From contig JBAWYD010000001.1 in assembly GCA_037143735.1 (NCBI GenBank), positions 1 to 49,615 of the forward strand: a stretch of 49,615 nt of DNA. The letters run 5' to 3'. The DNA comes from Deltaproteobacteria bacterium. GTDB lineage: Bacteria > Desulfobacterota > Syntrophia > Syntrophales > UBA2185. The notes beneath the pieces were generated by a model, which ran no database searches, was not told the DNA's origin, and saw only the letters and a program-made list of their open reading frames with translations. Below are positions 1,609 through 49,615 of the stretch, piece by piece. Position 1 is the stretch's first letter, and each line of letters starts with the position of its first letter. The position numbers and the translations under genes are program-made.

Positions 1609-1685
1609 TGGTGAGCCGTGCGGGAATCGAACCCGCGACAAACGGATTAAAAGTCCGCTGCTCTACCGGACTGAGCTAACGGCCC
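1609..1685 (-). tRNA. tRNA-Lys (anticodon UUU), CCA encoded
   Basis: The reverse complement folds as a cloverleaf: acceptor GGGCCGT/ACGGCTC (one G-U pair), D arm GCTC/GAGC, anticodon arm GCGGA-CUUUUAA-UCCGU, T arm GCGGG-TTCGATT-CCCGC, and a terminal CCA. Confidence 0.9.
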
Positions 1686-7221: not shown

Positions 7222-8327
7222 TTAGCGAGGTGCTTACTCGGCACTTCGGAGACGCCTCACAAGACCTTTTTGAGAAGAGTCCGCTTCTTCAGTACATTAA
7301 CCTCAAGACAGTTTCCGCCACGCGTGGTTCAAAGGCAAGAAGCAGTTTCGCAAATCTCTACGCGATCTATGTGCTGGTGGAAGACTACGTGGCGCATGGT
7401 TTTCATAAGAAAGGGGATTACTCGAAATACGCTGGTGCGCAATTTTCGAAACTCTTCAAGCGGCAACGCGAGTTACCGTTTGGAAGTAAGTTGCAGAACC
7501 ACGGTCTGAATGACCGGTTGAATGGTGAATTCCGCAAGTTCTTCCCACAAGTGGACGCGCAGCCAATTCTAAGAGTGGTTGAGACTCGTAGGTACTGGAT
7601 AAACCGCAGACTCGTCGTGCTTTCGCTCGGAAAGAAGATGTTCGACATCGCCGAAGCCATCATCGAGATCATAAACGCATACGCCAAGGCGAAACAGGCA
7701 TCATTTGCCGGATTCATTAAGACCTGCGAACAACTGCGTGGCATTTCCAAACAGAAGAACGACAAGGTGGAAGGATTTGTTCTTGGACTGTTGGCTCCAA
7801 ATGTTGATGCCCGCATATTTGAGATCGTCAGTTATGCCATTTTGAAATACTTCTATCACGATCAAACAGTCTATTTCGGTTTTCAGTTGGATGATTTGGA
7901 AAAATCACCTCTGATTCTCTACAAGACCGGACGCACAAATGCCAACGACGGCGGCATTGATTTCGTGATGACGCCACTGGGGCGTTTCTTTCAGGTCACG
8001 GAGACGCTCGATGTACGGAAATATTTCTTGGATATCGATAAAATCGAGCGGTATCCGATAACCTTTGTCATCAAAGCCGTGGAATCCTCAGATGATCTTC
8101 TCAAGAAACTACGTGAAGGCGCAGAGCGCCAGTACTCTGTTAAGGCCATTGTAGAGAAGTACATGGCTTGCATTGAAGAGGTCATCAACATACCAATACT
8201 GCAAGAGCGCTTCAGGGCAGGCATATCCCAAGGCTACCTTGGCAACATCATGACCGAGATCGTCAGACAAAGCAAAGTCGAGTTCAACTACGAGGAACCA
8301 GACGACGATGAGAATGGCGAAGAATGA
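7197..8327 (+). CDS. Putative cognate Type II restriction endonuclease (family not recognised)
   Basis: Overlaps the MTase 3' end by 25 nt on the same strand. 'NDGGIDFVMTPLGRFFQVTETLDVRK' resembles a PD-(D/E)XK / Mrr-like core. The call rests mainly on context. Confidence 0.5.
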   Translation: MEHDFTPVISEVLTRHFGDASQDLFEKSPLLQYINLKTVSATRGSKARSSFANLYAIYVLVEDYVAHGFHKKGDYSKYAGAQFSKLFKRQRELPFGSKLQNHGLNDRLNGEFRKFFPQVDAQPILRVVETRRYWINRRLVVLSLGKKMFDIAEAIIEIINAYAKAKQASFAGFIKTCEQLRGISKQKNDKVEGFVLGLLAPNVDARIFEIVSYAILKYFYHDQTVYFGFQLDDLEKSPLILYKTGRTNANDGGIDFVMTPLGRFFQVTETLDVRKYFLDIDKIERYPITFVIKAVESSDDLLKKLREGAERQYSVKAIVEKYMACIEEVINIPILQERFRAGISQGYLGNIMTEIVRQSKVEFNYEEPDDDENGEE

Positions 8328-8863
8328 AATTGGCCAACAATGTGCTGCCTACGTACGACATGACCGTCCGCTGTCAAGTTGACGGAGAGCACTGGCGTTG
8401 TGGATCAATCATTTCAATCGTAAATTTTCATAACATTTTGCTCACCGGCATTATTGCTTTGTTGTCAGTCGAAGCTCACTTCAACAGGGTATCAACTCAA
8501 AAGTTCGCATCACCCGGATGAACCCGTGCGCTACGCAGAGCCGCGTGGAGACACCAAAGGGCGCGTCTGGATACGTGGTTGCGATAAACGACTTCGGCGG
8601 ATGGCCGATTGCTTAGGGAAAATGGGACAACGGATCACAAAACGTGCCGAGCAATAAACTGACATGAAAACCGAGGGCATGCTCGCTATTTGATTAATAA
8701 TAACAATGAGTAAAAGTAGTTCGCGCGGCGAACTCCTCTCTAATTAAGTCCCTCATGTCGGGTGAGATATGTGCGCGAAATCTGATAAAGTGGAAAAGAA
8801 ACTTGATAGCGGATCCCAGGAGGTGAGGGTTTTGGACCCCGGTGCCCTTAAAAAGGATTCTTC

Positions 8864-8892
8864 TTGACGCCTCGTTGAAAATAACCTATATT
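8864..8892 (+). promoter_or_regulatory. Sigma-70-like promoter for the Phd/RelE pair
   Basis: TTGACG (8864..8869), a 17-nt spacer, then TATATT (8887..8892), about 38 nt upstream of the antitoxin start. Confidence 0.4.
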
Positions 8893-8929
8893 GAGTATCA
8901 AATAATGGTTTTATATTGGAGGCATGTGT

Positions 8930-9175
8930 ATGGATTATCTACTGGCAAAATCGTCTGTCAGCATCACGGACCTGAAAAAAAACCCTTCGGCAATCATCAA
9001 GGAGGCTGAGGGGGCGCCTGTAGCTATACTGAAGAACAACAGACCTTCCGCTTATATTGTTCCGGCGGATACGTTTGAGGCCATGCTGGAAAAACTGGAC
9101 GATCTGGAAATCGCAAGGATTGTCAAGGAGCGGAAAAGGGATAAGACAGTCCGGGTATCTCTTGATGAGTTATAA
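8930..9175 (+). CDS. Phd/YefM/StbD-family type II antitoxin
   Basis: 81 aa. 'SITDLKKNPSAIIKEAEGAPVAILKNNRPSAYIV' is a typical Phd/YefM N-terminal fold. GGAGG lies 7 nt upstream of the ATG at 8930 (the ORF track starts at 8924). The 3' end overlaps the toxin start. Confidence 0.8.
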   Translation: MDYLLAKSSVSITDLKKNPSAIIKEAEGAPVAILKNNRPSAYIVPADTFEAMLEKLDDLEIARIVKERKRDKTVRVSLDEL

Positions 9176-9449
9176 CCTTGAATTCAAGGAATCCGCTCTT
9201 AGGGAATGGGGTAAGCTGGACAGGCCGATAAGGGAACAATTCAAAAAGAAACTGTCTAAACGTCTTGAAAATCCGAAGGTTGAGGCGGACAAGGTCAGTG
9301 GATTGGTAAATACGTACAAGATTAAGCTTCGTGTCGTGGGGCTGCGTCTGATCTATGTCGTTGACGATGAAACAAACACCCCGACTGTTTATGCCGTGGG
9401 GAAACGAGACAAAAAGACGGCCTATCGGAAGGCCAAAGAACGTGTATAG
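9165..9449 (+). CDS. RelE/StbE/ParE-superfamily type II toxin
   Basis: 94 aa starting MSYNLEFKESALREWGKL. 'YKIKLRVVGLRLIYVVDDETNTPTVYAVGKRDK' is typical of RelE/StbE. Overlaps the antitoxin by 11 nt. Confidence 0.85.
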   Translation: MSYNLEFKESALREWGKLDRPIREQFKKKLSKRLENPKVEADKVSGLVNTYKIKLRVVGLRLIYVVDDETNTPTVYAVGKRDKKTAYRKAKERV

Positions 9450-9455
9450 GATATT

Positions 9456-10838
9456 TTGGAATTTAAGGAGACCTTTCGATTGAAAAAAATCAAGACTCAG
9501 TTTTTCTGTCAGAATTGCGGGCATCAGTCTTCGAAATGGCTGGGCAAATGTCCCTCCTGCAATGAATGGAACCAGTTCGTCGAAGAGGAAGTACGTTCCG
9601 CCGATCCCGCCATGTCATCCGAGATTCCCTTCAATGAAGCTCCCCTACCGATAGAGGATATCGTTGCCGATGAGAAAGAAAGGATCTCCACGGGGATGGT
9701 CGAGATGGACAGGGTGCTCGGGGGCGGCATCGTCAACGGTTCCGTGACACTGGTCGGCGGTGATCCCGGTATCGGAAAATCGACCCTTCTGCTTCAGATC
9801 CTCCAGAATCTGGCCCTCCAGAATCTGAAGGTGCTGTATGTTACCGGAGAAGAATCGGCAAAGCAGATCAAGCTCCGGGGAAAAAGAATCGGGGCTTCAT
9901 CGGGGAATCTCCTGGTCCTCGTTGAAATCGCCCTTGAAAATATCACCCGCCATATTAAAGACATATCGCCGAAGGCAGTTGTAGTGGATTCCATTCAGAC
10001 GGTTTACACGTCTGCTCTCGGGTCGGCTCCCGGCAGTGTGGGACAGGTCAGGGAATCATCCGGGAAGCTCATTCTGCTTTCAAAGAAGACGGGCATTCCC
10101 GTTTTTCTGATCGGCCATGTGACCAAGGACGGGTCCATCGCCGGGCCGAAAGTTCTGGAGCACATGGTGGACACCGTCCTCTATATCGAGGGGGATTCGG
10201 GCCACGCTTACCGGATCGTCCGGGGCATAAAAAACCGTTTCGGACCGACCAATGAAGTCGGCGTCTTTGAGATGAGAGACAGCGGACTCTCGGAAGTATC
10301 CAACCCCTCCGCTTTTTTTCTGACGGAAAGACCGGAAGGGGCGGCGGGCTCCGTTGTGGTGCCGAGCATGGAGGGCACCCGGCCGATCCTTATTGAAATT
10401 CAGGCACTCGTCAATCCGACGAATTTTGGCATGCCGAGACGTACCGCCATCGGGGTCGACCCTAATCGGGTGTCCCTCCTGGTTGCCGTTATGGACAAAG
10501 TATGCGGATTACACCTCAGTAACCATGACATCTTTATCAATGTGGCCGGCGGCATCAAGGTCAATGAACCTGCCATCGATCTGGGGATCGTTTCCGCCAT
10601 GGCCTCCAGTTTTCTGGACCGGCCCATCGATCCGGGAATTGCCGTTTTCGGCGAGGTGGGTCTCACCGGCGAGATAAGAGGGATCTCCCAGATGGAAACG
10701 CGGATCAAAGAAGCCGCCCGCATGGGATTCACCCGCTGCATTCTCCCCAGGACCTTCTCAAAGGTCGGGTCCGTGGAAAAGAAGATGGATCTCATAAGGA
10801 TCAATAACGTAAAAGAATTGCTGGAACACTTGTTTTAG
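9456..10838 (+). CDS. radA: DNA repair protein RadA/Sms
   Basis: Zn-finger 'CQNCGHQSSKWLGKCPSCNEW', Walker A 'GGDPGIGKST', the 'KNRFG' motif and a Lon-like C-terminal domain. The true start is probably the TTG at 9480 (AAGGAG lies 9 nt upstream). Confidence 0.95.
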   Translation: MEFKETFRLKKIKTQFFCQNCGHQSSKWLGKCPSCNEWNQFVEEEVRSADPAMSSEIPFNEAPLPIEDIVADEKERISTGMVEMDRVLGGGIVNGSVTLVGGDPGIGKSTLLLQILQNLALQNLKVLYVTGEESAKQIKLRGKRIGASSGNLLVLVEIALENITRHIKDISPKAVVVDSIQTVYTSALGSAPGSVGQVRESSGKLILLSKKTGIPVFLIGHVTKDGSIAGPKVLEHMVDTVLYIEGDSGHAYRIVRGIKNRFGPTNEVGVFEMRDSGLSEVSNPSAFFLTERPEGAAGSVVVPSMEGTRPILIEIQALVNPTNFGMPRRTAIGVDPNRVSLLVAVMDKVCGLHLSNHDIFINVAGGIKVNEPAIDLGIVSAMASSFLDRPIDPGIAVFGEVGLTGEIRGISQMETRIKEAARMGFTRCILPRTFSKVGSVEKKMDLIRINNVKELLEHLF

Positions 10839-21627: not shown

Positions 21628-23337
21628 CTAACCATCCTCCCCATCCTCTTCTGAAACATTCAGAGATAGCAGATTGACGGCTTCGACGGAGGGAAGTTCC
21701 TGCACGTTCTTGAGCTTTCTTCCAATAGCTCTCGACCGGACCTTGGCCTTTTCGATGGTGTCCGTTGCCTGATGCAGTTTGTTCTGAACGATGTCCAGAA
21801 CATCGCCGTACTTCGTCCATTCGGTCTTGACCGCCGCAAGAAGGTTCCATACCTCGCTGGAACGCTCCTGAATGGCAAGCGTGCGGAACCCCATCTGAAG
21901 GCTGTTCAAAATGGACCAAAGGGTAGTCGGACCGGCGATCACCACCCGGCACTCCCTTTGGATGACCTCGGTCAACCCGGGTCTTCGGATGACTTCGGCA
22001 AAAAGTCCCTCGATGGGCAGGAACAGAATGCCGAAATCCGTGGTCTTTGGGGGGCTCAGGTATTTCTCGCAGATGTCCCTGGCGCAGCTCTTGACGCGGT
22101 TCTCAAGCTGTTTTCCTGCTACTTCCACACCCTCTACATCGACCTTCTCTTGAGCCTCAATCAGACGTTGATAGTCTTCGACAGGGAACTTGGCATCAAT
22201 CGGGAGCCAGACGGTCTCATCCTTCTCCAAACCTTGTCCCGGCAACTTGATCGCAAACTCGACACGCTCGCCGCCATCCCTCGTGGCCACGTTCATGGCG
22301 AACTGATCGGGATTGAGAACCTGCTCCAACAGCGCCCCAAGTTGCACTTCACCCCAAGTCCCACGCGTCTTGACGTTCGTAAGTACCTTTTTGAGGTCGC
22401 CAACGCCCGTGGCAAGTGTCTGCATCTCCCCAAGCCCCTTGTGCACCTGCTCCAGGCGTTCGCTGACTTGTTTAAAGGATTCTCCCAGACGTTTTTCCAG
22501 CGTCCCTTGAAGTTTTTCGTCCACGGTCTGTCGCATTTGATCAAGCTGTTTGGCGTTGTCGATCTGCATGCTTTGAAGTTTGCCTTCCACCGTAACTCTG
22601 ACCGCCTCAAGTTTTTTCTCATTTGAATCGGAAAGCTTTCCGATCGCCGCCGACATTGTTTCAAGTTGGGTTTTTTGGACATTGGCCATCTCCCCCATTG
22701 TTTTGGTGGTGGCTTCTGTGATCCCTTTGAGAGCCGCTATGACCTCTTCCCTTAATTGTTTAGCACCTGTGGCCGATTCAGTTCGTATACCATCGAGTTT
22801 CTCACCACTGGTCTTTGTCAAGGAGGCGATCTGTCCTGAGAATGTTTCAAGCTGAGCTTTTTCGGCAACGGCCAAATCTTTCATCGTCTTGGCCATCGTC
22901 TCAGAGATGCTTTTGAGGGTCGTCACGACTTCTTCACGAAGCTGCTTAGCCCCTAAGGCTGATTCTGAACGCACGCCGTCCAACCGCTCACCGCTGGCAT
23001 GGGCAAAGGCACCGAGCTGACCCGAGAAAGCATCGAGTTGCCCTTTTTGTATATTGGCAACATCCATCATTCGCTGAACCACGGAATCACCGAAGGTTTT
23101 GAAGGCTTCGGTGAGTTCATGCCGCTGTTCCCTTGCTGCCTTGCTGAGTTCATCCCGGCTGTGAGCCACTTCCTCCCGGACCGCTCGTTCGGTACGTTCC
23201 TGCGCTTTTTCGAAGGCATCGAGGCGGGGAGCAAGCACAGCGGCGTCGCTTTGCGATGCCTTCTTTAAGAGAATCAACAGGAGCCCGATAACAACAACCA
23301 GCATGATCAATGCTGCAATCAACAGGGTATCAGACAT
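21628..23337 (-). CDS. rmuC: DNA recombination protein RmuC with an expanded N-terminal coiled coil
   Basis: N-terminal TM helix and a long coiled coil. The C-terminal nuclease-like region ('VEFAIKLPG', 'LPIDAKFPVEDY', 'FGILFLPIEGLFAE') is typical of RmuC. I prefer the ATG at 23337 (GGGAGGAG RBS 8 nt upstream) over 23391. Confidence 0.9.
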   Translation of the reverse strand: MSDTLLIAALIMLVVVIGLLLILLKKASQSDAAVLAPRLDAFEKAQERTERAVREEVAHSRDELSKAAREQRHELTEAFKTFGDSVVQRMMDVANIQKGQLDAFSGQLGAFAHASGERLDGVRSESALGAKQLREEVVTTLKSISETMAKTMKDLAVAEKAQLETFSGQIASLTKTSGEKLDGIRTESATGAKQLREEVIAALKGITEATTKTMGEMANVQKTQLETMSAAIGKLSDSNEKKLEAVRVTVEGKLQSMQIDNAKQLDQMRQTVDEKLQGTLEKRLGESFKQVSERLEQVHKGLGEMQTLATGVGDLKKVLTNVKTRGTWGEVQLGALLEQVLNPDQFAMNVATRDGGERVEFAIKLPGQGLEKDETVWLPIDAKFPVEDYQRLIEAQEKVDVEGVEVAGKQLENRVKSCARDICEKYLSPPKTTDFGILFLPIEGLFAEVIRRPGLTEVIQRECRVVIAGPTTLWSILNSLQMGFRTLAIQERSSEVWNLLAAVKTEWTKYGDVLDIVQNKLHQATDTIEKAKVRSRAIGRKLKNVQELPSVEAVNLLSLNVSEEDGEDG

Positions 23338-23487
23338 GATCCAACTCCTCCCAAAATTTGTTTGTTGAATAGACCGGTTACTTTCGGTCATTCATCTATT
23401 TACCTGTATTTTCCCTATATCTTTATGTTGATGTCATAGCTACTAACCCCCATGCCGGGGTCGGGCACATCCGAGGGGTAGGATTGA

Positions 23488-24075: not shown

Positions 24076-24855
24076 TTACAATTTCTTATAAAAACAATGC
24101 TTTACAACAAGACATTTACTGCATGTTGGCACATTTTCAAGACAGATACCCTGGGGAAGTCCAATGTCCATATCATCTTCGATATGCCCAAATTTCACCA
24201 TGATAATGTCTACATATCTATGGCTATAGCCGGTTTCTTCAGCAAATTTGTTGCAGACTTGCCGTGCGTCATCAAGGCAAGTTTCATTTCTGACCAATTG
24301 CAGGCGGCTCAATACCCTCATAATAACCCTGTCAGGTTTTATCGTTTTTGCCCCGATATCCGTGAGAAAATGGTGCACTGTCGCCTCGCCCATATAAGAG
24401 AAGGTATGTCTAAGGATCGTTGCCGCCTTTTCGAGATCTTCCGGGCTTCGGTTAAAATTCAAAGACCCCAGATAGTTTTTAAAGGAACCATGCCGCTTCG
24501 TTATGGCCTCTACGATTTTTGCGTTTGAAATGGCTGACCTTATTTTAGCGGGATGCCTGATCATCTTTGAATCTGTCAGGATCTTATTGAAATCGGACTC
24601 ATCATATCGGGCAACTGTTTTGTAGTCTGGGAAATATCCTTTGATTGTATCGATCTTGCTCGTTACGGTCTTGCTTTTCATGCCTGCGTAAAAAGGGATG
24701 TAGGCAAGAACCTGATAAAGGTAATTGTCATCGAAGGCTTCAAAGTCAAAGTGCTTGAACCGCTCGAATCTGCTGAGCACTGTCTCACGCGAATAATTTG
24801 AATTTTTAATGATGGTTTCCAGAATCAAATCGAATATATTTCTATGCTTTCCCAT
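24076..24855 (-). CDS. HhH-superfamily DNA glycosylase (Tag/EndoIII-like, MpgII-type) with a C-terminal [4Fe-4S] cluster loop
   Basis: 'AGMKSKTV...FPDYKTVARYDESDFNKILTDSKMIRHPAKIRSAISNAKIV...HGSFKNYL' aligns with E. coli Tag ('AGLSWITV...FDPVKVAAM...AGIIRHRGKIQAIIGNARAY...FADFVW'). An HhH-plus-Asp segment 'MGEATVHHFLTDIGAKTIKPDRVIMRV' is present. The C-terminal 'CLENVPTCSKCLVVKHC' is exactly C-X6-C-X2-C-X5-C, as in EndoIII and MutY. I prefer the ATG at 24855 (AGAGGA RBS) over 24924. Confidence 0.8.
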   Translation of the reverse strand: MGKHRNIFDLILETIIKNSNYSRETVLSRFERFKHFDFEAFDDNYLYQVLAYIPFYAGMKSKTVTSKIDTIKGYFPDYKTVARYDESDFNKILTDSKMIRHPAKIRSAISNAKIVEAITKRHGSFKNYLGSLNFNRSPEDLEKAATILRHTFSYMGEATVHHFLTDIGAKTIKPDRVIMRVLSRLQLVRNETCLDDARQVCNKFAEETGYSHRYVDIIMVKFGHIEDDMDIGLPQGICLENVPTCSKCLVVKHCFYKKL

Positions 24856-24901
24856 TTTAATCCTCTTATCCCAGTAATATTGTATAATTGACCATGATGT
24901 T

Positions 24902-25843
24902 TCAGGGGGACGTTGAAAAACCATCCCGTGTGACTTTGTTCGATCCTTGAATCAATATCTCGTCAAGCGGATCATAAGCAGCCGTTTCCTTTTGATAATC
25001 TTTCCAGCGTTTTTCATAAACAGTCTGCGCCAAAAGTGATACATCCGTCGTTCTGCCTTCATCATCCGACTCATCAAGACCGTAGTCGTAACGAATTCCA
25101 CCGCGTTCAGTCAGAATATACCGGGCATGGGGTTTGTCACCGTCTGGTTTTTCCTTCCAACGGAAAACACGCAATTGCGAACCTTCCGGTAGGATTGGAG
25201 ACAAATAATTCTGGCAACGCTCCTGCCAGATATCCAGAGGAGGAGGGGGCTTTTTTATCGATTCTTTATACTCGGCATGAAGTTCACAACGGCGGGGCTT
25301 GTTGTTTTCGAAGGTAAAATTGATGATATGGGAAAATGTATCCCGGAATCTCGGTAATTCCGGATTGAAATGAGGATCAATCATCATGATTTCTTTACTG
25401 AAATTTAAAAGCGATCTTGCGCAAACCGCAAGATCGTATGCCTTTCGCGGCACTATTTTTTCCCTCGGGACATTCCATAGCTCGATTGTTTCATCAATGT
25501 CTTCCGCAATCAGGACTTTTTCGTGATTTCTCGGATTTTCACATGAGATAATGGCGTGAAAAAATTTAATGTCATGTTGATTTTCGGCGTTTTCGAGCCA
25601 GCCTCGTTCTGAAGAGTAATTCCTGTTGGAATTTATCAGCTTATGCTCCATATTGCGCAGCTTTTCAACAACGGCCGTCCTTTTCACTCCCTCTATAATA
25701 CAGTGGCTTATCGCCTCTTTCTGCCATCTTCGGGGGAAACGGGATATCAGTCTGCCATGGTGAACACCGCACTGGTCAATCACATATTTGAACGTTGGCC
25801 AGTTGTTGAGACAAGCGGGGTCCAGGGCAAATTCATGAATCAT
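24902..25843 (-). CDS. Hypothetical protein (313 aa), translationally coupled to the upstream ATPase
   Basis: The ATG at 25843 overlaps the ATPase stop codon as ATGA (the ORF-track start is 25888). I found no Walker, HNH, TIR, Toprim or PD-(D/E)XK motif. Candidate conserved strings are 'IMMIDPHFNP' and 'PHARYILTERGGIRYDYGLD'. Confidence 0.7.
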   Translation of the reverse strand: MIHEFALDPACLNNWPTFKYVIDQCGVHHGRLISRFPRRWQKEAISHCIIEGVKRTAVVEKLRNMEHKLINSNRNYSSERGWLENAENQHDIKFFHAIISCENPRNHEKVLIAEDIDETIELWNVPREKIVPRKAYDLAVCARSLLNFSKEIMMIDPHFNPELPRFRDTFSHIINFTFENNKPRRCELHAEYKESIKKPPPPLDIWQERCQNYLSPILPEGSQLRVFRWKEKPDGDKPHARYILTERGGIRYDYGLDESDDEGRTTDVSLLAQTVYEKRWKDYQKETAAYDPLDEILIQGSNKVTRDGFSTSP

Positions 25844-27675
25844 CAGAAAAGCTCCTTTTCGCGTTCGGTGAAAAAGCCTTCCGGCCATTTATCGATAAAA
25901 TCCCCATCCTCGGAAATGCGCAATTCCATGAGTTCCGTGCCGTGTTCCGTCGGCTTGGCATAAATGACAGCCACATCCTCTGGCTTGAGGGGTGGCTGGC
26001 CTTCCTCCAGTTCGCCGTTGGTCGTCTCCCGGATACGCCGGAGCAGGCGCAGCAGGAGATGCTCACTATGGGTTTCAATTATATATTGACATGGTTTCTT
26101 TTTCGCTCCTTCGATAAAGAAATCGGCCAATTCTGTCTGTAGACGCGGGTGAATGTGGATCTCTGGTTGCTCGATAAACTTGTAGCTCCATTCAGAACGA
26201 TCATAGTATTGCCCATTCCACTCATAGCGATCGGAAATCAGGCCGTCCACGAGTATAGGCAGGATCTGGCTTATGCCGAAGCCGACATCCTTGATGCAGG
26301 ATTCAATGCCTGTTTCCGTGCTAATGAGAACTATTTCGTAATAATCCCTGACCACAGGACGAACATTGATCTCGTAGCCTGCTTCCAGGCGCTTGAGCCA
26401 TGCGTTGACCTTCTCCAGAATGTCCGGCCTGGCAATTAGAATGTCCATCGTGTTTTCCCCTTTGCTGCCCACAGTTGCCGGCGCTGTTCCCGAATAGGCA
26501 TACATACGCTCTGGCATGGCCCGAAGAGGTCCGATATAGGTCGTCAAGGCCAGCATGTCCTGAAAACACCTAGAGGCGAGAAGAACCGCCGTGTAAGGAA
26601 GATAAAAACAGTGTGCTTCATCAGTCTCGCGCGCATCGGAAGCTCGCTGTTCTGTAAGCGCGCCAGCCTGTGATACCGCATGGATGAACCTGTACTCCTC
26701 GCCCGTAACCAATTTCTGGGGAAAACAATTACCCAGCGCGATAAGGCGATCAAAATATCCGTAATTATTGTGAAATACTGCTACCATCTCCATTAAATCA
26801 CTGTCAGACAAGTCCTGTATACTCTTTTGCAAAGATTCCAAAAAGGATAGGTAGCGCTCGCATTTTTTTATTTCCTCCTTGGCCTGGATATTCTCCAATG
26901 TATTTTCTTCCGCCTTTGCTTCCTTTGCCCTTGCTTTGGCAAGACGTTCTCTCAAAGGAGTCATCTCCTCTGTCAGGCCCATATCAGATGGTTCCTCTCC
27001 TTCTTCTTGTAGTCTTCGATTACTATCTGCGTTATAATCCCAGCGTGCCTTGACGCATGGATGATCCAGATTTAACTCTGTACGACACAACATATTTGAT
27101 GTTTTTAGTTTTTCCAGCTCCTCTTTCGCTTGTTTATAATTGGAATTTTTGATGGCTTCGGGGTCATTTTTTTCAACAAATTCTTGGATGATACTTTCCC
27201 ACATAGAGATTGCACTCTGCATCTCCGGGATGTCGTCCAGCAGGCGGTATGCTGTTACCACTTCTCCTCCGACCCGGTCGGAGATATCAATGGCCTTGAC
27301 ACGGATGTTGCGTTGCCTGTCCAAGGCAAAGCGCATACCAAGGGCAATCGTTTGTGTAGGGTTCCATACCCACGCCAAGTCATCTTCAGCCAGCGAAGAT
27401 GCATCCATAGCGATACTGAACCCAAACTCTTTCTGTTCGTTGTGGCCGTTGATAAATTCTCGGTAGGTGCCGGCATCGAGTAACTGTCCCCTGGGAATCA
27501 ACGCGCCTTGCTTGCGCCCCCCTTCATCAAGTGTCTGTTTGAACAACAGCAGCGCCTGCATAAGAGAGCTTTTCCCGGAACTATTTGGTCCATAAAGAAG
27601 AGTGATTGGCTTTAATGGGATGCGCTGCATCTTGCCGAAGGATTTGAAATTTTCGATGCCGATTTCTGTAAACAT
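25843..27675 (-). CDS. ABC/SMC-like ATPase of the AAA15/AAA21 type with a central coiled-coil insertion and a DUF3696-like C-terminal tail
   Basis: Walker A 'LYGPNSSGKSS', signature-like 'GFGISQILPIL', Walker B 'FIEQPEIHIHP', H-loop 'IIETHSEHLL'. Residues about 170-300 are charged heptad-like sequence ('RERLAKARAKEAKAEENTLENIQAKEEIKK'). The tail reads 'DGDFIDKWPEGFFTEREKELF'. AGGAGA RBS lies 6 nt upstream. Confidence 0.85.
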   Translation of the reverse strand: MFTEIGIENFKSFGKMQRIPLKPITLLYGPNSSGKSSLMQALLLFKQTLDEGGRKQGALIPRGQLLDAGTYREFINGHNEQKEFGFSIAMDASSLAEDDLAWVWNPTQTIALGMRFALDRQRNIRVKAIDISDRVGGEVVTAYRLLDDIPEMQSAISMWESIIQEFVEKNDPEAIKNSNYKQAKEELEKLKTSNMLCRTELNLDHPCVKARWDYNADSNRRLQEEGEEPSDMGLTEEMTPLRERLAKARAKEAKAEENTLENIQAKEEIKKCERYLSFLESLQKSIQDLSDSDLMEMVAVFHNNYGYFDRLIALGNCFPQKLVTGEEYRFIHAVSQAGALTEQRASDARETDEAHCFYLPYTAVLLASRCFQDMLALTTYIGPLRAMPERMYAYSGTAPATVGSKGENTMDILIARPDILEKVNAWLKRLEAGYEINVRPVVRDYYEIVLISTETGIESCIKDVGFGISQILPILVDGLISDRYEWNGQYYDRSEWSYKFIEQPEIHIHPRLQTELADFFIEGAKKKPCQYIIETHSEHLLLRLLRRIRETTNGELEEGQPPLKPEDVAVIYAKPTEHGTELMELRISEDGDFIDKWPEGFFTEREKELF

Positions 27676-27690
27676 GATGGTTCTCCTGAT

Positions 27691-27852
27691 TTATTGGCCT
27701 TTTTTCACCGCAGTAGCTTCATCCTCTTCAACTTTCTTTGATAAAGCCATTCTTACATAGGTTGACATGTCACAGTTAAACCTCTCAGCCTGTTTCTGAA
27801 TTCTTTCCTTAAATGCGTGGTTCGCTCTGATTATCATTACTGAAGTCTTCAT
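27691..27852 (-). CDS. Ribbon-helix-helix (CopG/Arc-like) DNA-binding protein, first gene of the operon
   Basis: 'MKTSVMIIRANHAFKERIQKQAERFNCDMSTYVRMALSKK' fits the beta-alpha-alpha RHH pattern. An AGGA RBS lies 7 nt upstream of the ATG at 27852. Alternative longer starts are 27945 (ATG) and 27981 (TTG). Confidence 0.65.
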   Translation of the reverse strand: MKTSVMIIRANHAFKERIQKQAERFNCDMSTYVRMALSKKVEEDEATAVKKGQ

Positions 27853-27988
27853 GCTTCTTTCCTTTGAGGGCAATTTGACATGATGGTTGTGCAAGCTGTG
27901 AGACAAAGCATTAAAATGAGCAACATTCCTGTAATGATCTTCCATGACATTTCCTGCCTCCCTTGATATGTATTTACTCAAGGGCTAG

Positions 27989-28004
27989 AGCAGGTTCTAT
28001 GCCA
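27989..28004 (-). promoter_or_regulatory. Candidate sigma-54 (-24/-12) promoter
   Basis: The minus strand reads TGGCAT-AGAAC-CTGCT against the consensus TGGCAC-N5-TTGCW. The GG and GC dinucleotides have the correct 10-nt separation. It sits in the intergenic region upstream of the RHH/ATPase operon and 1.4 kb from a sigma-54 activator gene. Confidence 0.55.
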
Positions 28005-28080
28005 GGTACATGTATCTCATATAATGTCATGATATTGTTAGATTATTAAATTTGTGCGTTTTTTATAGCTGAAAGAAAAC

Positions 28081-28094
28081 GTAATATATATTAC
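28081..28094. promoter_or_regulatory. Perfect 14-bp palindrome, candidate enhancer (UAS)/operator
   Basis: GTAATATATATTAC is its own reverse complement. It lies about 77 bp upstream of the -24 element, a typical distance for bEBP binding sites. Confidence 0.3.
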
Positions 28095-28149
28095 TATAAC
28101 AGTAAACATCGTTACCTTAAAACGCCTTCAGATATGTTTGTTCCAGCCG

Positions 28150-29397
28150 TCAGGCAAGCCAGTTCCACGGAATGGCGATTACATGAGAGTGGAGCCAACG
28201 GATTTCTGAACCGGTGTATAGAAGGACGCCCCTGACAGTTTGGGGATATGCTTCGAGAAAGAGAAGAAGATTCTTGTAGTCGTTATATCCGGGATTGTCG
28301 GTCATTTTGACTTCGAACGCCAGTAGTTTTCGTCCGTGTTCAATAACGAAATCGACCTCCTTGTTGCCCGTTGTTTGCCAGAAGTATATTTTCCCCTTGG
28401 GGGTCATTAATTCCGTCAAAATCCTCAGGTGCAAGAATATCATGGTTTCAAAGAAATTTCCAAGTTCTCTTCCCTTGCGCAGGGCATCCTCATCGAAGTA
28501 GCCTGACAGATAGACGCTCAATGCGGGATCAACAAAATACAGTTTGGGAGTTTTTTTTATCTGACTGGTGCGATTTACGTAAAAAGCCGGCACCCTGGAG
28601 ACGATGTTCGATATCTCCATAAGCCTAAGGTAACGAAATACAGTGGACTGGCTAACGCCCGTGTCTCTCGCCACGTCGGTCTGTTTCATCATGCAGCCGG
28701 TGCGCAGGGCGAATGATTCCACCACCTTTCTGAAATCAATCAGAGAATCGACCTGAGATAACTGACGCAAGTCTCTTTCCAGATATGTCCTGACGTATCC
28801 CTCCCACCAGAGAGATATCTGCTTGGGATTGTCCAGAGTCAGAAGCGGCGGCATAAAGCCCCGCAAAATCAGCGGCAGCGGATCTGTGGCATCTTTTTTC
28901 TGTTCTTTGATTTCAAGGTCATCGTTCCATAAGTTCAGAAAATTCTGAAATGCATCTTCCTTTCCTGTCATTTCTCCGTGCGACATCGGCAGGAGTTCAA
29001 AATAAACCGCTCTTCCCGCAAGTGTTTCACTTACCTTTTCCATCAACAGGAGATTTGCAGAGCCTGATATGAGGAATCTCAACCTTCTTTGGCTTGAATC
29101 AACGGCAAGTTTTATGGCGGAAAAGACTTCGGGCAATCTCTGTGCTTCGTCGATGATGATTTTTTCCGCCCCTTTCCAGAGGATTTGAGGATCGCTTTTC
29201 GCCTGCTGAAGAATTCTATGATCGTCAAAGCTGACATATCTGAAGTCGGGAAACTCGTTTTGAAGAAGGGTGCTTTTGCCTACTTGTCTTGCGCCCGTTA
29301 AAACCACAACAGGAAATATTTCAATAGCTGCGGCTACTTCCTTAGCCATCCATCTTTTTTTGTAAATCAATTCAGGTGCTGAATAGTTTTCATTCAT
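28150..29397 (-). CDS. AAA+ ATPase with DUF4143-type C-terminal region (COG1373-like) carrying a PD-(D/E)XK-like motif
   Basis: Walker A 'LTGARQVGKST', Walker B 'IIIDEAQ', a wHTH-like 'VSQSTVFRYLRLME', and C-terminal 'EVDFVIEHGRKLLAFEVK'. Confidence 0.85.
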   Translation of the reverse strand: MNENYSAPELIYKKRWMAKEVAAAIEIFPVVVLTGARQVGKSTLLQNEFPDFRYVSFDDHRILQQAKSDPQILWKGAEKIIIDEAQRLPEVFSAIKLAVDSSQRRLRFLISGSANLLLMEKVSETLAGRAVYFELLPMSHGEMTGKEDAFQNFLNLWNDDLEIKEQKKDATDPLPLILRGFMPPLLTLDNPKQISLWWEGYVRTYLERDLRQLSQVDSLIDFRKVVESFALRTGCMMKQTDVARDTGVSQSTVFRYLRLMEISNIVSRVPAFYVNRTSQIKKTPKLYFVDPALSVYLSGYFDEDALRKGRELGNFFETMIFLHLRILTELMTPKGKIYFWQTTGNKEVDFVIEHGRKLLAFEVKMTDNPGYNDYKNLLLFLEAYPQTVRGVLLYTGSEIRWLHSHVIAIPWNWLA

Positions 29398-29452
29398 AAC
29401 GTGAATAATATTTATATTTCTTTATAAGTCAAGATAATTATTGCTTTATGAA

Positions 29453-31006
29453 TCACATCCCAAACTTTTCCTTCGCCCGCTTGCGGAAGGTATGGGGTTT
29501 GATTTTGAGGAGTCGGGCAGCGGCTTCCCGGTTGCCGTCTTTCATTTTGATGGCTTCTTCATAGCAGGACTTTTCAAGATCGTGCAGATATGCGTCGATG
29601 TCCAGACCTTCGGGCGGGACGGAGGTTTGCCGGAAAGGCGTAGAGGGCGTATCTTTAGAAGACAGGAATGAAGGTGATGTTTCCGGAGGCAGGTCTGCGT
29701 CTCTGATAACATTGCCTTTTGATATAACAAATGCCCGCTCCATAGCGTTCTCGAGTTCCCGAATGTTGCCCGGCCAGGCGTAATCAAGGATTTGTTTCAT
29801 TGCTTCCCGGCTGAGCTGCTTCTTCTGACGGTAACGATGGTTATGGTTGTTCAAAAAATGCTCCACGAGGAAAGGAATATCTTCTTTTCTGTCGCGTAAG
29901 GGCGGCATCTGAATATCGATGACCTTCAGCCGGTAATACAAGTCTTCCCGGAATTTGCCTGCGGTGACGAACCCGGCCAGATCCCGGTTGGTGGCGGCGA
30001 TAACCCGCACATCCGTCTTTATGGGGTTCAAGCCGCCGACGCGCGTGATCTCATAATCCTGCAGAACCCGGAGGATCTTGGCCTGGGCGGGCAGGGGCAT
30101 ATCGCCTATTTCGTCGAGGAAAATGGTTCCTTTGTTAGCCAGTTCGAATTTGCCCTTCTTCTGCTGAATCGCACCGGTAAACGCGCCCTTTTCATGGCCG
30201 AAAAGTTCGCTTTCCACGAGGGTTTCCGGAATGGCCGCGCAGTTAACCACAATGAAAGGCTCAGTTTTTCTCGCACTGTTGAAATGAACCGCACGGGCGA
30301 TGAGTTCCTTGCCCGTACCGGTTTCCCCTTGAATTATGACGGCAGAGTCATACCGGGAAGCAGCCCTGACCACATCAATTACCTTCTCCAGGGCAGGGCT
30401 TTTACCGATCATCCGGAGATCGGAAAATTCGCGAACAATGTCGTCCCTTTCCGCCTCTAACTGTTCTTTTCTCAATAAGGTTACGACATAATCAAGATTC
30501 TCCAGTGCAGGGGACGAAATCAGGGGAAAGTTATCGAGAGGTAAATGGATTTCGGAGACAGCCTTTTGACGGGGCCTCAAAAACCTGGGCGGTGTGATTT
30601 TGAGCAGAGTCGCCGGAACCAGTCCTGACCGGGAAAGGAGAAACCAGATTGTCTGCATCTGCGGCGTCCCGGATGCCGTGGCAATCCAGTAAGATGGCTG
30701 CTCATTTTTGTGCTTGCCCATGATATCCTGACAGAGCCTGTTCATATGGAGAAACAGGTTTTCATAGTCCGTAGGATCAGAAATGTCGATGTTTAGTATG
30801 CTGGTTTCGACGTCATTCACGCGTCCGGCGATCTCATCCTGAAGGTTGTGGGCATTGGTCAGGGTATTCGGGGTTGTAAAAATATATATCCACTGGAAAT
30901 GCCGCTCCCCGAGAAGCGTCAGCACGGGGCCTTCGGAATTGATGCCCTGGATGATTTCGAGGTTGAATGGATCCCGGTTGCCGGCAAAGGTGAGCAGTAT
31001 ATCCAT
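29453..31006 (-). CDS. Sigma-54-dependent transcriptional activator with an RtcR-like CARF N-terminal domain
   Basis: AAA+ core 'GETGTGKE', '[15 protein letters not shown]' (GAFTGA) and 'IFLDEIGDM'. C-terminal Fis-type HTH '[19 protein letters not shown]'. The N-terminal ~170 aa, including '[19 protein letters not shown]', align with 'YLIHITTGTHVAQICWFLL' of E. coli RtcR. Confidence 0.85.
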
Positions 31007-31020
31007 AGCGATTCCTCAGA

Positions 31021-31428
31021 TTACGGTTTAACGCCTCTGATCTCAAGAAATTCCCGGGGTGTGACAATGTTTATTCCCTGATACCGGCGGACATCAATCA
31101 GCGCCTTGTCACCGGAGACGACATATTGGGCCTTCAGGGCCAGGGCGCAGGCGATGAATTTGTCGTCGTCCGGGTCAGCGACGACATGAACTTCCGGCGT
31201 TCTGGTCGTAAAGACAATGTGGAAGCCGGTGGCGAAAAGCTTCAGCAATTCCTCCAGCTCCTGCGTATTGTCGAATCCCAGGCGACGGAGAACTTCGATG
31301 TATTCATCAAAGATTTCCTGCGAAAGGCAGAGTGTCAGGCGGCCATCTTTCCATAAATCGATGATTGCTCTCGGGTTGCCTCCGAAGAAGGAGGAAATGA
31401 AAACATTGGTATCCAGGACGACCCTCAT
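31021..31428 (-). CDS. PIN-domain toxin (putative RNase)
   Basis: 'MRVVLDTNVFIS' (first acidic residue), 'EEL', 'DPDDDKFIACA' and 'VVSGDKAL' are typical of the PIN_3/TIGR00305-type family. ATGA overlap with the upstream antitoxin gene. Confidence 0.85.
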   Translation of the reverse strand: MRVVLDTNVFISSFFGGNPRAIIDLWKDGRLTLCLSQEIFDEYIEVLRRLGFDNTQELEELLKLFATGFHIVFTTRTPEVHVVADPDDDKFIACALALKAQYVVSGDKALIDVRRYQGINIVTPREFLEIRGVKP

Positions 31429-31673
31429 GTCTTGCCCTGCCTGACTTCCTGAATGGTCTCGGAAATCCGGTCGGCTGTGACGCCCTGCGAGACCAGCCGC
31501 ATTCCGATTTTTTCCCAGAGACCGTCCACATATGCGGCTATATCGCGGCTGGATATATATTCCTCCAGCAGCTCCCGGACGACGTCGCTGGTCGTTTTCC
31601 CCTCCGCCCGCGCAAAGCGGTTTACTTTATCTTTAAGCACAGGATCGATCCGGATGATCATCTGGGTAGACAT
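31425..31673 (-). CDS. RHH-type antitoxin partner of the PIN toxin
   Basis: 'MSTQMIIRIDPVLKDKVNRFARAEGKTTSDVVRELLEEYI' fits the RHH pattern. AAGGAGGAG RBS lies 6 nt upstream of the ATG at 31673 (ORF-track start 31724). Confidence 0.7.
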   Translation of the reverse strand: MSTQMIIRIDPVLKDKVNRFARAEGKTTSDVVRELLEEYISSRDIAAYVDGLWEKIGMRLVSQGVTADRISETIQEVRQGKT

Positions 31674-31783
31674 GGCGCTCCTCCTTTTGTGAAACCGTAT
31701 TAAACGTTTATACGATATATACAAAAGAAAACAGTGTCAAGAAAATTTTCAGCCGATAAAATCTGATGGGTTCGTAAAATGTC

Positions 31784-46177: not shown

Positions 46178-49100
46178 TTATTTCACCGGCCAGCCGCCGT
46201 GGGTGTCGATGGTCTCGTCGATGGCCGCCATGTGGCGGATGGTTTCGGCCAAGGCGGCGACGACGCGCTGGTAATGGGTGATGTCGTCATAGGTAAGCGG
46301 GCGGCCCTTCCGGTCCTTGAGCCATTTCCGGCAGACCTGGTAACCGCCGACATGAAACGCCCACACCTCCGGGGGCACTCCCTCGAAGTACTGGGTCTTG
46401 TTGATCCAGACACGCCCTGCTCCATGCCGACCCTTGTCTTCCTTTCCATCTGGGGAGGAACTCCCGTTATACCCATCCCTCCCCTGGCGGGAGGGATCGA
46501 GGGAGGGGGAAGCTTCCGCATATTGAACCGTTTCCACAAGATTGTCCCCCGCAATGGGGTAGGCCGTGATCAGCGGCATTGTTTTTTCCATCAGGTGCAG
46601 CGCCACAAGCTCTTCCCCGATGCCGCAAAGATTGCGGAACAAATCGGCGTTTGACGTCAGGGGCAGGCGAGGAAAGTCGATCTTGAGGAACTCGGCGTAA
46701 CGGCTGCGGTAGGCCGGGGAATGGAAGACGGCATACATGTAAGCGAAAATATCCTCCGGGCCGAAGGTCTGTTGCCGGTCTCCCTTGCCGTCGGGGATGA
46801 AGACCATGCCGAGACGGGCGGCAATATCCTCGATGAACGCCGGGGCAAGGTTGGGGCGGCGGGAAGAAGAATTGTCTGTTTTAAACAATGAAGTTTCAGA
46901 CTCGCTCTCAAGATAAAGAGGGAAATGGAAACTGTTATTTGATGTTTTGGGAGAGAGAAGAATCTTCTCCGACGGAAACTTTGTCAAATAGATATGGGCA
47001 AATGATTCGCCCTTTGTCATACGACTTGTTAAAAGAGCAATATTATCGCCAATCATCTGGTTCATGACGGCTGGCCGGGGCCTACTGTGAAATCCCCTCG
47101 AGTGGCCGGTATAGAAGGTGAAACGATCATCAAAAGGCCGGTAGGCCAATCTGATCAAAGAACTGTCTGAAAGTCCGGTCTGTTTCAAGTCAGATTGGGC
47201 CAGTGCTATTTGCCAATCTTGTGAGTCTTCGCCAAGGTCCAATTCCTGACGGGCCACTTCAGGTGGCAATGAAATAAAACGACCAAGCTTTTCTTTCGCT
47301 TCCTCGGAGGTCATGTGCACGGCCAAGTGGTCGCGTGACGTCACTATTCCTACTGAGTAGATCGACATCATATCCGTAACCTTCCATCCCCGTTCGTATT
47401 CCGGCAGCAAAGCGATATCCTGCGGCACAAAAAGATAAAACGGCGGTTGGGGCGTCAGAGTTTCCCAGGTTGTGGTCTGAATGTCGTTTTCCCAGAGCCA
47501 GGCATATTTGCTGCCGGAGAGCTTCCGTCCATCCGGGGTGTTTTCATGGACCTCGCGGATTCCCCAGAGGTGGGCATGGTGGATTCGGGAAGGGCGGTCT
47601 TGGGCATTATGCTTTTTCACAAAGATCCCGATGGCCACACCCTGCTGGATGTCGAAGACATTTTCATCTTTCGAGCCGTCGGGACAGCGCTCCTTCTTCT
47701 TGCTGTTGCCGTGGAGATCGAGGAGATAGATGTCGTCGAAGGTGTTCATGAGGCTTTGGCGCATTCCCCGGAAAGTCGGGTTGTCAAGATAGCCGTGATT
47801 CGTGATGAAGGCAAGGATACCGTAACCCGTTTTCTCGATCCGCCACTGGGCAAAGCGGATGAATTTGACATAATCGTCCTGTAGCCCTTTCGGATTGCGC
47901 TCACCCAGAGGCTGACCGTCCACTGAATAATAGTCCCGGATCAGTGCGCTGATCCATTCTCCTGTATTAGCGGATTCATATGAATACGGCGGATTACCCA
48001 GGATGACCATTACCGGCGCATCCTGTTTGACCGCACCGGCGGCGTTGACCTCTTCGACAAGCCACCGGGTGAAGAGAGGCATATCGCTGATTTTATAGGC
48101 CTCCTCCAGTGTGTTGGTGAGGTAGATACGGAGGCGCTCGTCCGAGCCGAAGTCATAGCCGTATTGGGCAAGCTGGAGACCAAGCTTCATGTGGGCCACG
48201 GCGTAAGGGGCCATGAGAAGTTCAAAGCCGAAAATCCTCGGCAGAAGGTGCCGGGATACATAACCCTGTTCGCCGCTCCATGCGCCGACCTGACCGGCTT
48301 TGCAGATGTGGTCATGAATCTGATCAATGACGCCGTGGAGGAATGTTCCCGTTCCTGCGGCCGGATCGAGAATCAGGACGCGATGAATTTCCGAGCCCCC
48401 CTCACCCTGCCCCTCTCCCGCCGGGGGAGAGGAAACTTTTGGTTTTGTCAGCTTGATCTTGCCCGTATCGGCCAGGCCGTCCGGCAGGCAGAAATCGGTT
48501 TTCAGCAGATGATCGACGCTGCGGACGATATAGGAAACGACCGGTTCGGGGGTGTAATAGACGCCCCTGGCCTCTCGCATCTTAGGATCATAGGCGGTCA
48601 GGAAGGTCTCGTAGAAATGGACGACGGGGTCTTCCTGGCGGGTGCGCTTCCCGAAATCCCGGAGGATGCCTTCCATGTCCGTCCGGTCCAGAAGGGTCGC
48701 AAGGTCATCGACAATCCAGACGATGCGTCCGTCCATGTCCGGCCCGGCGATGTAATTGAAGAGTCTCCGCAGAAAGGGATTCGTTTTGGGCAGATCGAAG
48801 GCGGCATGCTCCCGGATAAAATGATTTCCCTTTTCCAGGCGGGTGTTGCAGCGGGCGGCGAAGAGGCCGTAACAGATGGTCTGGGCGTACATGTCGGCGA
48901 ACTGTTCCGCCGTCAGATCATGCAGAAGGACCTTCCGGAAACCATCCATTTGCATATGGAGAGCGCCTTCCTCTCCTTCATCGTTCAGGGCATTCAGGAT
49001 CGTCGTTCGGGTCTGACGGGCCAGTGAGGCCATGCGGACGGCCAGATCCTTTGGCGTATTAATCAGAGCTACGCGTTCGTGAAAAAAGGCTGAGAGGAGT

Positions 49101-49516: not shown

Positions 49517-49519
49517 GAT

Positions 49520-49547
49520 ATTATAGTGGGAAAATGTTTCTATGCAA
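49520..49547 (-). promoter_or_regulatory. Sigma-70-like promoter abutting the Type IIG start codon
   Basis: The minus strand reads TTGCAT (49547..49542), a 16-nt spacer, TATAAT (49525..49520), then ATC-ATG. No Shine-Dalgarno is present. Confidence 0.35.
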
Positions 49548-49615
49548 GGTTGTTCGCTGCTGGTGTCAAGAGCAAATAGACTTGTCCGGTTTTGTAGCAA
49601 ATGAGTTGTCCGCTT

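Follow-up and report, generated by a model that had tools for sequence, protein, structure and literature searches.

Predicted sigma-54 promoter and paired palindromes in front of an ATPase operon

We analyzed a stretch of 49,615 nucleotides at the beginning of contig JBAWYD010000001.1 (GenBank assembly GCA_037143735.1; hereafter the window) from a deltaproteobacterium of the Syntrophales. Its minus strand carries a gene for an RtcR-like transcriptional activator, a gene for a DUF4143 ATPase and an operon that encodes an ABC-type ATPase together with a protein of predicted PLD-superfamily fold. The intergenic region ahead of this operon holds a -24/-12 element, TGGCATAGAACCTGCT (28004..27989, minus strand), which is preceded by two 14-bp palindromes. 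Judging from the comparisons described below, TGGCATAGAACCTGCT is very probably an enhancer-dependent sigma-54 promoter and the paired palindromes the enhancer for the RtcR-like activator.

The element was recognized by direct reading, by a weight matrix and by its conservation. It reads TGGCAT-AGAAC-CTGCT compared with the sigma-54 consensus TGGCAC-N5-TTGCW, and its invariant GG (28003/28002) and GC (27991/27990) lie 10 nt apart, the canonical GG-N10-GC spacing that an earlier note, made from the letters of this DNA, had correctly read on the minus strand. A matrix scan as suggested in the same note ranks it first in the 49.6 kb on both strands, with a score of 14.87 under our approximate matrix and 12.8 for the runner-up. 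Canonical sigma-54 geometry predicts a transcription start at about 27978 (27977..27979, minus strand), 12 nt 3' of the C of the -12 element and in agreement with the position predicted before, leaving a leader of 28 nt. From the stop codon of the DUF4143 gene (28150) to the ATG of a ribbon-helix-helix (RHH) gene (27852) the distance is 297 bp, the length given in the note; the first open reading frame (ORF) after the promoter, however, is an apparent lipoprotein remnant and not the RHH gene that the note had named. Since this 33-codon ORF with its own ribosome binding site (RBS) sits inside the 297 bp, the truly non-coding part comprises only 199 nt. No sigma-70-like promoter was detectable in positions 27600-28400, the gap included. 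A leader RNA or riboswitch in the gap is unsupported, because Rfam yielded no match there and the predicted RNA fold is unremarkable (z = -1.55).

The proximal palindrome, GTAATATATATTAC (28081..28094), is a perfect 14-bp palindrome and the sole exact copy in the window. It was found by direct reading and is supported by conservation with the related locus L001 and by the family consensus; our repeat finder filters runs of short units, so that the A+T-rich palindrome remained unlisted. It lies 76 nt upstream of the T of TGGC, with its start at -90 relative to that T and its center at about -110 from the predicted transcription start, and the 75 nt between palindrome and promoter are 75% A+T compared with 50% for the window. 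The earlier description of a perfect 14-bp palindrome about 77 bp upstream in A+T-rich DNA thus holds, but it missed a second copy, GTAACGATGTTTAC (28102..28115, read 28115..28102 on the minus strand). This distal palindrome has one mismatch to the family consensus GTAAY-N4-RTTAC (14 bp), to which both window palindromes were compared. It starts at -111 from TGGC, is centered at about -131 from the transcription start and lies 21 bp, center to center, upstream of the proximal copy. Both dyad-symmetric sites of the window thus precede the -24/-12 element at a distance within the range of about 80-150 bp. A possible site for integration host factor (IHF), TATCATGACATTA (28022..28034, minus strand), lies in the A+T-rich spacer and has one mismatch to WATCAANNNNTTR, which is weak evidence. 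Such IHF-like sites (at most one mismatch to WATCAANNNNTTR) occur between enhancer and promoter in 11 of the 18 promoters compared below, and an IHF site ahead of the promoter is suggestive only.

An RtcR-like activator is encoded upstream

Two genes upstream of the operon, the gene at 29453..31006 (minus strand) encodes a 517-aa protein with the domains of a bacterial enhancer-binding protein (bEBP), namely a CARF domain, a sigma-54 AAA+ domain with GAFTGA motif and a helix-turn-helix (HTH), as assigned by Pfam, PADLOC and motif reading. The N-terminal RtcR/CARF domain scores 38.1 bits in Pfam (cut-off 23.1), Sigma54_activat is matched at 1e-71 together with AAA_lid_14, and HTH_8 reaches 20.1 bits, just below the Pfam cut-off of 22. 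Over its full length the protein matches the PADLOC profile RtcR_PspF2--CARF_AAA_HTH (2e-136), and direct reading finds Walker A, Walker B and GAFTGA intact. An intact GAFTGA activator implies sigma-54, short of proof. We refer to the protein as RtcR-like and not as an RtcR orthologue because its NCBIfam score of 345.7 bits is far under the equivalog cut-off of 650 bits; neither rtcB nor rtcA is found among the neighboring genes. An exact-protein look-up returned no record for the activator or the ATPase of the window. We presume this activator to be the regulator of the promoter described above.

Immediately upstream of the activator gene, the minus strand encodes a PIN toxin (PIN_3, 31021-31428) and a RelB/RHH-type antitoxin (31425-31724), with a sigma-70-like site at 31740..31712 ahead of the pair. 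The pair is probably co-transcribed with the activator gene.

Conservation of the arrangement in related loci

Two sets of related loci, designated by L numbers, were compared with the window. The first comprises nine loci (L001-L009) from a genome scan with the ATPase (39-85% identity), in which the closest relatives are Syntrophaceae/Smithella metagenome-assembled genomes (MAGs). The second comprises metagenome loci fetched with the CARF domain of the activator only (residues 1-195), a query containing neither promoter nor ATPase. The palindrome motif was defined on the ATPase-found loci and then tested on the CARF-found loci. The pooled comparison covers 18 promoters from 16 non-redundant related loci with a total of 316 kb.

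In the nine ATPase-found loci the best matrix match is always on the strand of the ATPase, and seven of them carry the palindrome pair. The sigma-54 match lies 60-93 nt before the ATPase gene in L006 and L007, and in L002 and L005 it stands before a gene for a lipoprotein of 158-170 aa that precedes the ATPase gene. The 16-mer of the closest relative (L001/L012) is identical to the window element, spacer included. The matches in L003 and L009 were rejected as promoters; they lie inside conserved coding region and have no palindromes. Activator orthologues with 68-78% identity are encoded upstream of the ATPase in L001, L005 and L006, which are all of the first-set loci with enough upstream DNA. 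All CARF-found loci with enough downstream DNA show the order activator, palindrome(s), top sigma-54 match and ATPase (L012, L014, L015, L016, L017/18, L019, L021, L022/23 and L024), and a homologue of the 328-aa PLD-like protein usually comes next after the ATPase.

At all 18 promoters the best sigma-54 match is on the coding strand, before the ATPase/PLD-like pair or before accessory genes. Exact matches to GTAAY-N4-RTTAC are concentrated at these promoters, as 19 of 20 fall within -145..-75, zones that make up 0.4% of the 316 kb (binomial p ~1e-44). As a rule each promoter has two palindromes, whose starts are near -110 and -89, counted from the T of TGGC; the 14+7+14 arrangement with copies 21 bp apart is present in 15 of the 18 promoters, and three copies occur in L007 and L017. 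For the proximal copy, 14 promoters have the start at -87..-92, three have it at -98..-101 and one at -109. The shifts of about 10 and 20 bp correspond to about one or two helical turns, so the same helical face is kept. Position and phasing argue for the bEBP enhancer geometry that the note had suggested for the palindrome.

Comparison of the window with L001 yields a footprint of two blocks that are 100% conserved, 25 nt around the proximal palindrome and 18 nt over the -24/-12 element, inside an A+T-rich spacer that has diverged. The palindrome also goes together with one type of activator: the C-terminal HTH, starting GNREAAA(R/K)LL-I-(K/Q), is essentially invariant in the 14 activators whose loci carry the palindrome, and the linker just ahead of it is highly variable among the same 14. 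In the outgroup activators of L025 and L027 (30-40% CARF identity) and of L032 the helix differs, and their loci lack the palindrome. Loci with the ATPase/328-aa pair but no activator (L029, L031 and L034) have neither palindrome nor sigma-54 match. What the comparison shows directly are the sequence elements, how they are conserved, that their phasing is fixed and that they occur together with the activator and its HTH sequence. A scan of viral contigs with the double palindrome returned 81 A+T-rich matches, of which only four have a weak sigma-54 score nearby; these matches are informative only as a negative control.

Some related loci carry additional elements. A further sigma-54 match downstream of the module in L004, L005 and L008 marks a putative second enhancer plus sigma-54 promoter (L005 13741, L004 4046, L008 2617), which L014 also has (13470). 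Behind this second promoter lie genes for a small membrane protein, for a zinc-ribbon protein of 61 aa and for a DEAD/Helicase_C helicase of 875 aa; the window lacks all three.

Genes of the operon

The first ORF after the predicted promoter, beginning MSWKIITGMLLILMLCLTAC (27849..27950, minus strand, 33 codons), starts with the ATG at 27950 and is preceded by the RBS AAGGGAGG at 27964..27957, which is rated strong and, with the 28-nt leader, provides a suitable downstream context for the promoter. It encodes a signal peptide with a lipobox (LTAC) and aligns with the N-terminus of full-length lipoproteins in L002 (1608-2120) and L005 (8064-8540). These intact proteins of 158-170 aa have faint PEGA similarity and are encoded by the first gene after the promoter. 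In the window and in L001, the RHH gene occupies the place of the remaining lipoprotein. Between these two loci, the region 27950-27852 shows 3 synonymous and 8 non-synonymous changes in the lipoprotein frame, compared with 1 and 9 in the frame of an N-terminal extension of the RHH protein. Because neither frame shows clear purifying selection against L001, we read the 33-codon ORF as a decaying lipoprotein remnant or as a leader. The RHH gene (27691..27852, minus strand) encodes 53 aa with weak Pfam matches to NikA-like/DUF6290 proteins, and its ATG overlaps the stop codon of the 33-codon ORF (ATGA). Its product is 92% identical in L001. The gene is found at this position only in the window and in L001/L012 and is absent there in most related loci.

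The core of the operon consists of the ATPase and the PLD-like protein. The ABC-type ATPase (25843..27675, minus strand, 610 aa) combines AAA_15/AAA_21 with a C-terminal DUF3696 according to Pfam and PADLOC. It matches the PADLOC profiles NsnB (5e-57), PDC-M55A (1e-53), HEC-03B (8e-51) and AriA (2e-29) as well as GajA, and in all related loci the promoter is followed by an ATPase homologue. The next gene (24902..25843, minus strand) is part of a 328-aa ORF that is open back to 25888, and it probably starts at the ATG at 25843 with a one-base overlap with the ATPase stop codon, in translational coupling. Its product matches no Pfam, PADLOC or NCBIfam family, and the approximately 193 homologues are all annotated as hypothetical, none with a Pfam domain. 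The AlphaFold (AF2) model has a pLDDT of 93.4 and a pTM of 0.89, and Foldseek finds that the C-terminal half resembles proteins of the PLD superfamily, FAM83 and the nucleases NucT, PLD3/4, BfiI, SauUSI and Zucchini among them, with modest TM-scores. This fold search was the informative one, as sequence searches of solved structures with the PLD-like profile and with the ATPase yielded no useful match. His189 and His239 are invariant in the family, and based on the modeled fold the protein is a candidate nuclease. Although the ATPase matches known ATPase-nuclease defence systems (Menshen, PARIS, Gabija, PDC-M55 and HEC-03), its partner matches no partner profile of these systems.

The third gene (24076..24924, minus strand) encodes a glycosylase-like protein of 282 aa of the Tag/HhH-GPD type (Pfam Adenine_glyco 2e-16, PADLOC OGG 1e-15). 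This position is variable, with the glycosylase-like gene in the window and unrelated genes in other loci.

Probable insertions between activator gene and presumed enhancer

The gene between the activator gene and its presumed enhancer (28150..29397, minus strand) encodes a DUF4143 AAA ATPase (PADLOC PDC-S01) assigned by Pfam and PADLOC. It follows directly after the activator gene only in the window and in L011. In L001 a HigB/HigA pair replaces it (8796-9388 and 9480-9560), with about 50 nt of the 3' end of the DUF4143 gene remaining, and L006 has other toxin-antitoxin pairs in this segment. Because in L014 and L015 the enhancer adjoins the activator stop codon directly, with nothing between, the DUF4143 gene was probably inserted here and probably does not belong to the module. 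The compared loci mark the segment between activator and enhancer as an insertion hot spot.

Proposed mechanism

From the sequence comparison we infer that the activator binds the palindromes, that transcription depends on sigma-54 and responds to a signal, and that the operon may have a role in defence. Sigma-54 RNA polymerase would bind TGGCAT-N5-CTGCT (28004..27989) in a closed complex unable to open unaided. Dimers of the activator would bind 28081..28094 and 28102..28115 via their C-terminal Fis-type HTH, on two palindromes that are two helical turns apart and centered about 110 and 131 bp before the start. A signal would then relieve the N-terminal CARF domain and allow the activator to assemble an active AAA+ ring; by analogy with RtcR, products of RNA damage and nucleotide second messengers are candidates for this signal. 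The ring would reach the polymerase by looping of the A+T-rich spacer, possibly with the help of IHF, and open the promoter near 27978 at the expense of ATP. The resulting transcript would cover the lipoprotein remnant, the RHH gene, the ABC ATPase, the PLD-like candidate nuclease and the Tag-like glycosylase. Under such sigma-54/enhancer control, this nuclease-containing, defence-like operon should therefore stay silent until the activator is triggered.

A defence role of the operon is plausible. Tentatively, and aware that it may well not hold, we propose that the CARF domain is an infection or RNA-damage sensor that switches on a multi-operon immune regulon via bipartite enhancers and sigma-54 promoters. 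This regulon would consist of the lipoprotein and of the ATPase, the PLD-like nuclease and the variable third gene and, in relatives, of the membrane protein, the zinc-ribbon protein and the helicase.

Comparison with known systems

Classical bEBP enhancers (NtrC at glnAp2, PspF at pspA, DctD, ZraR) have two or three dyad sites that precede a -24/-12 promoter by about 80-150 bp, lie on the same helical face, are separated from the promoter by an A+T-rich or IHF-bent spacer and are bound by a Fis-type HTH_8. The window shares this tandem-site layout, as judged against the textbook description. Unlike in the classical cases, the sensor is a CARF domain, and the recognition sequence differs.

One of the closest known systems is RtcR-rtcBA. 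The rtcBA promoter of Escherichia coli combines its -24/-12 element with an upstream activating sequence (UAS) and an IHF site, and RtcR is kept off by its CARF domain (PMC9650030). The window resembles the E. coli and Salmonella systems in its CARF-AAA+(GAFTGA)-HTH activator, in a predicted sigma-54 target with a putative UAS and a possible IHF site, and in a CARF domain that would keep the activator off before a signal is received (PMC9650030; PMC7790460). In contrast to RtcR-rtcBA, its activator is not an orthologue, rtcB and rtcA are absent, and the targets are downstream and co-directional instead of divergent. These target genes encode the ABC ATPase, the PLD-like and the glycosylase-like protein, and GTAAY-N4-RTTAC is defined for this clade only.

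RtcR homologues also head co-directional defence superoperons, as described from computational analysis for CoCoNuT type II and III-A (Bell et al., eLife 2024, PMC11090510). According to the sections of that study on RtcR homologues, on which our comparison draws, CoCoNuT loci have ancillary genes between the RtcR homologue and the core as well as a BrnT-like RNase toxin just upstream. Likewise, the window has the activator at the 5' end, inserted genes and a PIN toxin upstream of the activator, and it shares the association with type I restriction-modification (R-M) and RmuC, here in distant relatives. Unlike the CoCoNuT loci described in those sections, the window has no McrBC/CoCoNuT genes, and a two-gene module of another kind forms its presumed regulated core. 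Regulation of CoCoNuT is predicted by analogy, with promoter and enhancer sequence left undefined in the sections on RtcR homologues. RtcR genes have further been annotated in Pseudomonas defence islands (PMC12191111).

Similar to Menshen NsnB, PARIS AriA, Gabija GajA, PDC-M55 and HEC-03, the module pairs an ATPase that matches these profiles with a putative nuclease, but the predicted fold of the partner is of the PLD type and not TOPRIM/OLD or HNH. The literature we searched holds no description of promoters, enhancers or signals of RtcR-like defence-island activators, and nothing on this ATPase/PLD-like module was found.

Strength of the promoter assignment and alternative explanations

Several points weigh against a sigma-54 promoter under enhancer control. 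Our weight matrix only approximates the published consensus, and the element itself has C at -15, where T is preferred, and TA in place of CG at -21/-20. As 36% of dinucleotide-shuffled windows reach 14.87 somewhere, the -24/-12 motif by itself is not statistically significant across the window. The distal palindrome is imperfect in the window and half-degenerate in L001, and rpoN is not among the genes of the window. Many of the loci are close relatives (Syntrophaceae/Smithella-type MAGs), therefore part of the conservation could reflect shared ancestry, though the spacers have diverged. Finally, the scan of 27600-28400 detected no terminator between the DUF4143 gene and the promoter, and a sigma-70-like site lies ahead of the DUF4143 gene (29432..29405); low-level, activator-independent read-through is therefore possible.

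The bare motif occurs at chance level. TGGCA-N7-TGC occurs three times in the window with 1.5 expected on both strands, in accordance with the estimate of one per roughly 65 kb of one strand made in the note, and the count of GG-N10-GC is at chance level. Two of the three matches represent one palindromic intragenic site, TGGCAGGAGCGTTGCCA (window 25210-25230), which has the sigma-54 pattern on both strands and was also called as a terminator-like hairpin. Its position inside the PLD-like gene (25212-25228) led us to reject it as a promoter; it is more likely a hairpin. Since the counts of the bare motif are at chance, they cannot carry the claim, and significance comes from conservation in related loci. 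Only 0.0008 matches this good are expected in the 199-nt gap on this strand, and given its position and conservation the motif is strongly non-random.

The alternative that survives best accepts the sigma-54 promoter and the enhancer as real but takes the regulon to serve stress-induced nucleic-acid repair or maintenance, similar to RtcR-rtcBA, instead of anti-phage defence. The sole characterized RtcR governs RNA repair, yet RtcR homologues have already been reported to head defence superoperons, at least in the sections of the CoCoNuT study cited above. A Tag-like glycosylase in the operon would suit repair. Against repair speak the variable third gene and the accumulation of toxin-antitoxin pairs, both as in defence islands. 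The DEAD/Helicase_C helicase in the second sigma-54 operon of relatives and the RmuC protein encoded downstream in the window fit a maintenance function, but distant ATPase/PLD-like pairs lie within type I R-M operons near RmuC, Fic, Mrr and AbiE, and the ATPase fits the defence profiles NsnB, PDC-M55A, HEC-03B, AriA and GajA. We consider repair or maintenance unlikely, though still a serious competitor as to what the operon is for.

Far less probable is that the palindromes are operators of some repressor, for which the RHH protein, the HTH-containing DUF4143 ATPase and the antitoxin of a toxin-antitoxin pair would be candidates, with transcription by sigma-70 or read-through and a fortuitous -24/-12 element. 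RHH proteins often bind tandem or inverted repeats, the bare -24/-12 match is within chance for 50 kb, and the undetected upstream terminator and the sigma-70-like site before the DUF4143 gene would supply transcription, but the gap itself has no sigma-70-like promoter. The palindromes and the -24/-12 element are present at all 18 promoters, even directly before the ATPase or unrelated genes; RHH and DUF4143 are each restricted to few loci and therefore cannot explain the motif. In addition, the palindrome is found together with a single, specific HTH sequence of the activator, and its distance to -24 is fixed or shifted by whole turns, a phasing that a repressor operator would not need.

Almost no credence remains for the view that A+T-rich intergenic DNA produced both elements by chance and that they have no regulatory role, for although the bare motif occurs at its expected frequency and the 81 double-palindrome matches in A+T-rich viral contigs are unlinked to sigma-54 elements, this view is already effectively refuted by the co-occurrence, fixed phasing and conservation over 18 promoters (binomial p ~1e-44 for the exact palindromes) and by the perfectly conserved footprint blocks relative to L001.

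Genomic surroundings and biological meaning

About 700 bp downstream of the operon, the minus strand encodes an RmuC-family protein of 587 aa with an N-terminal transmembrane segment and a coiled coil (21628-23391). L029 and L030 also have RmuC, encoded within a type I R-M operon. In the distant loci L029-L035 the ATPase/PLD-like pair stands at the end of type I R-M operons with the order hsdR, optional rmuC, hsdM, hsdS, ATPase and PLD-like gene. L032/33 have a different sigma-54 activator followed within 5 nt by a very strong sigma-54-type match, TGGCATGTTCATTGCT (L032 320-335), before hsdR. Toxin-antitoxin pairs are dispersed across the related loci. Elsewhere, the window has further genes of R-M type, one for a Type ISP enzyme of 1140 aa (Type_ISP_C and N6_Mtase; 46178-49600, minus strand) and one for an N6_N4 DNA methylase, after which a protein of 376 aa without family match is encoded (6331-8327, plus strand). 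A tRNA-Lys gene (anticodon TTT; 1609-1685, minus strand) lies between a decarboxylase-like gene and purA. The remaining window is ordinary chromosome with purA, serA, radA, pst/pho genes, groEL, ileS, lspA and trkHA.

Overall, the enhancer-controlled sigma-54 promoter at this locus is a well-supported, expected instance of enhancer-dependent transcription and no new principle. RtcR-like CARF activators recur at the head of defence islands, and the loci compared here supply a conserved cis layout, with two copies of GTAAY-N4-RTTAC 21 bp apart and about 75 bp before TGGCAY-N5-YTGCT. They also supply a matching, invariant HTH helix of the activator and a defined target, an uncharacterized ABC-ATPase/PLD-like pair that some type I R-M operons contain as well. 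The signature makes the regulon predictable in genomes. If the tentative proposal of an immune regulon is true, CARF signaling would act at the level of transcription and independently of CRISPR, and the combination of GTAAY-N4-RTTAC with the -24/-12 element would be a handle to find the natural ligand by a simple reporter. If the module is toxic, the very low basal activity of sigma-54 control would explain how the bacterium tolerates it.

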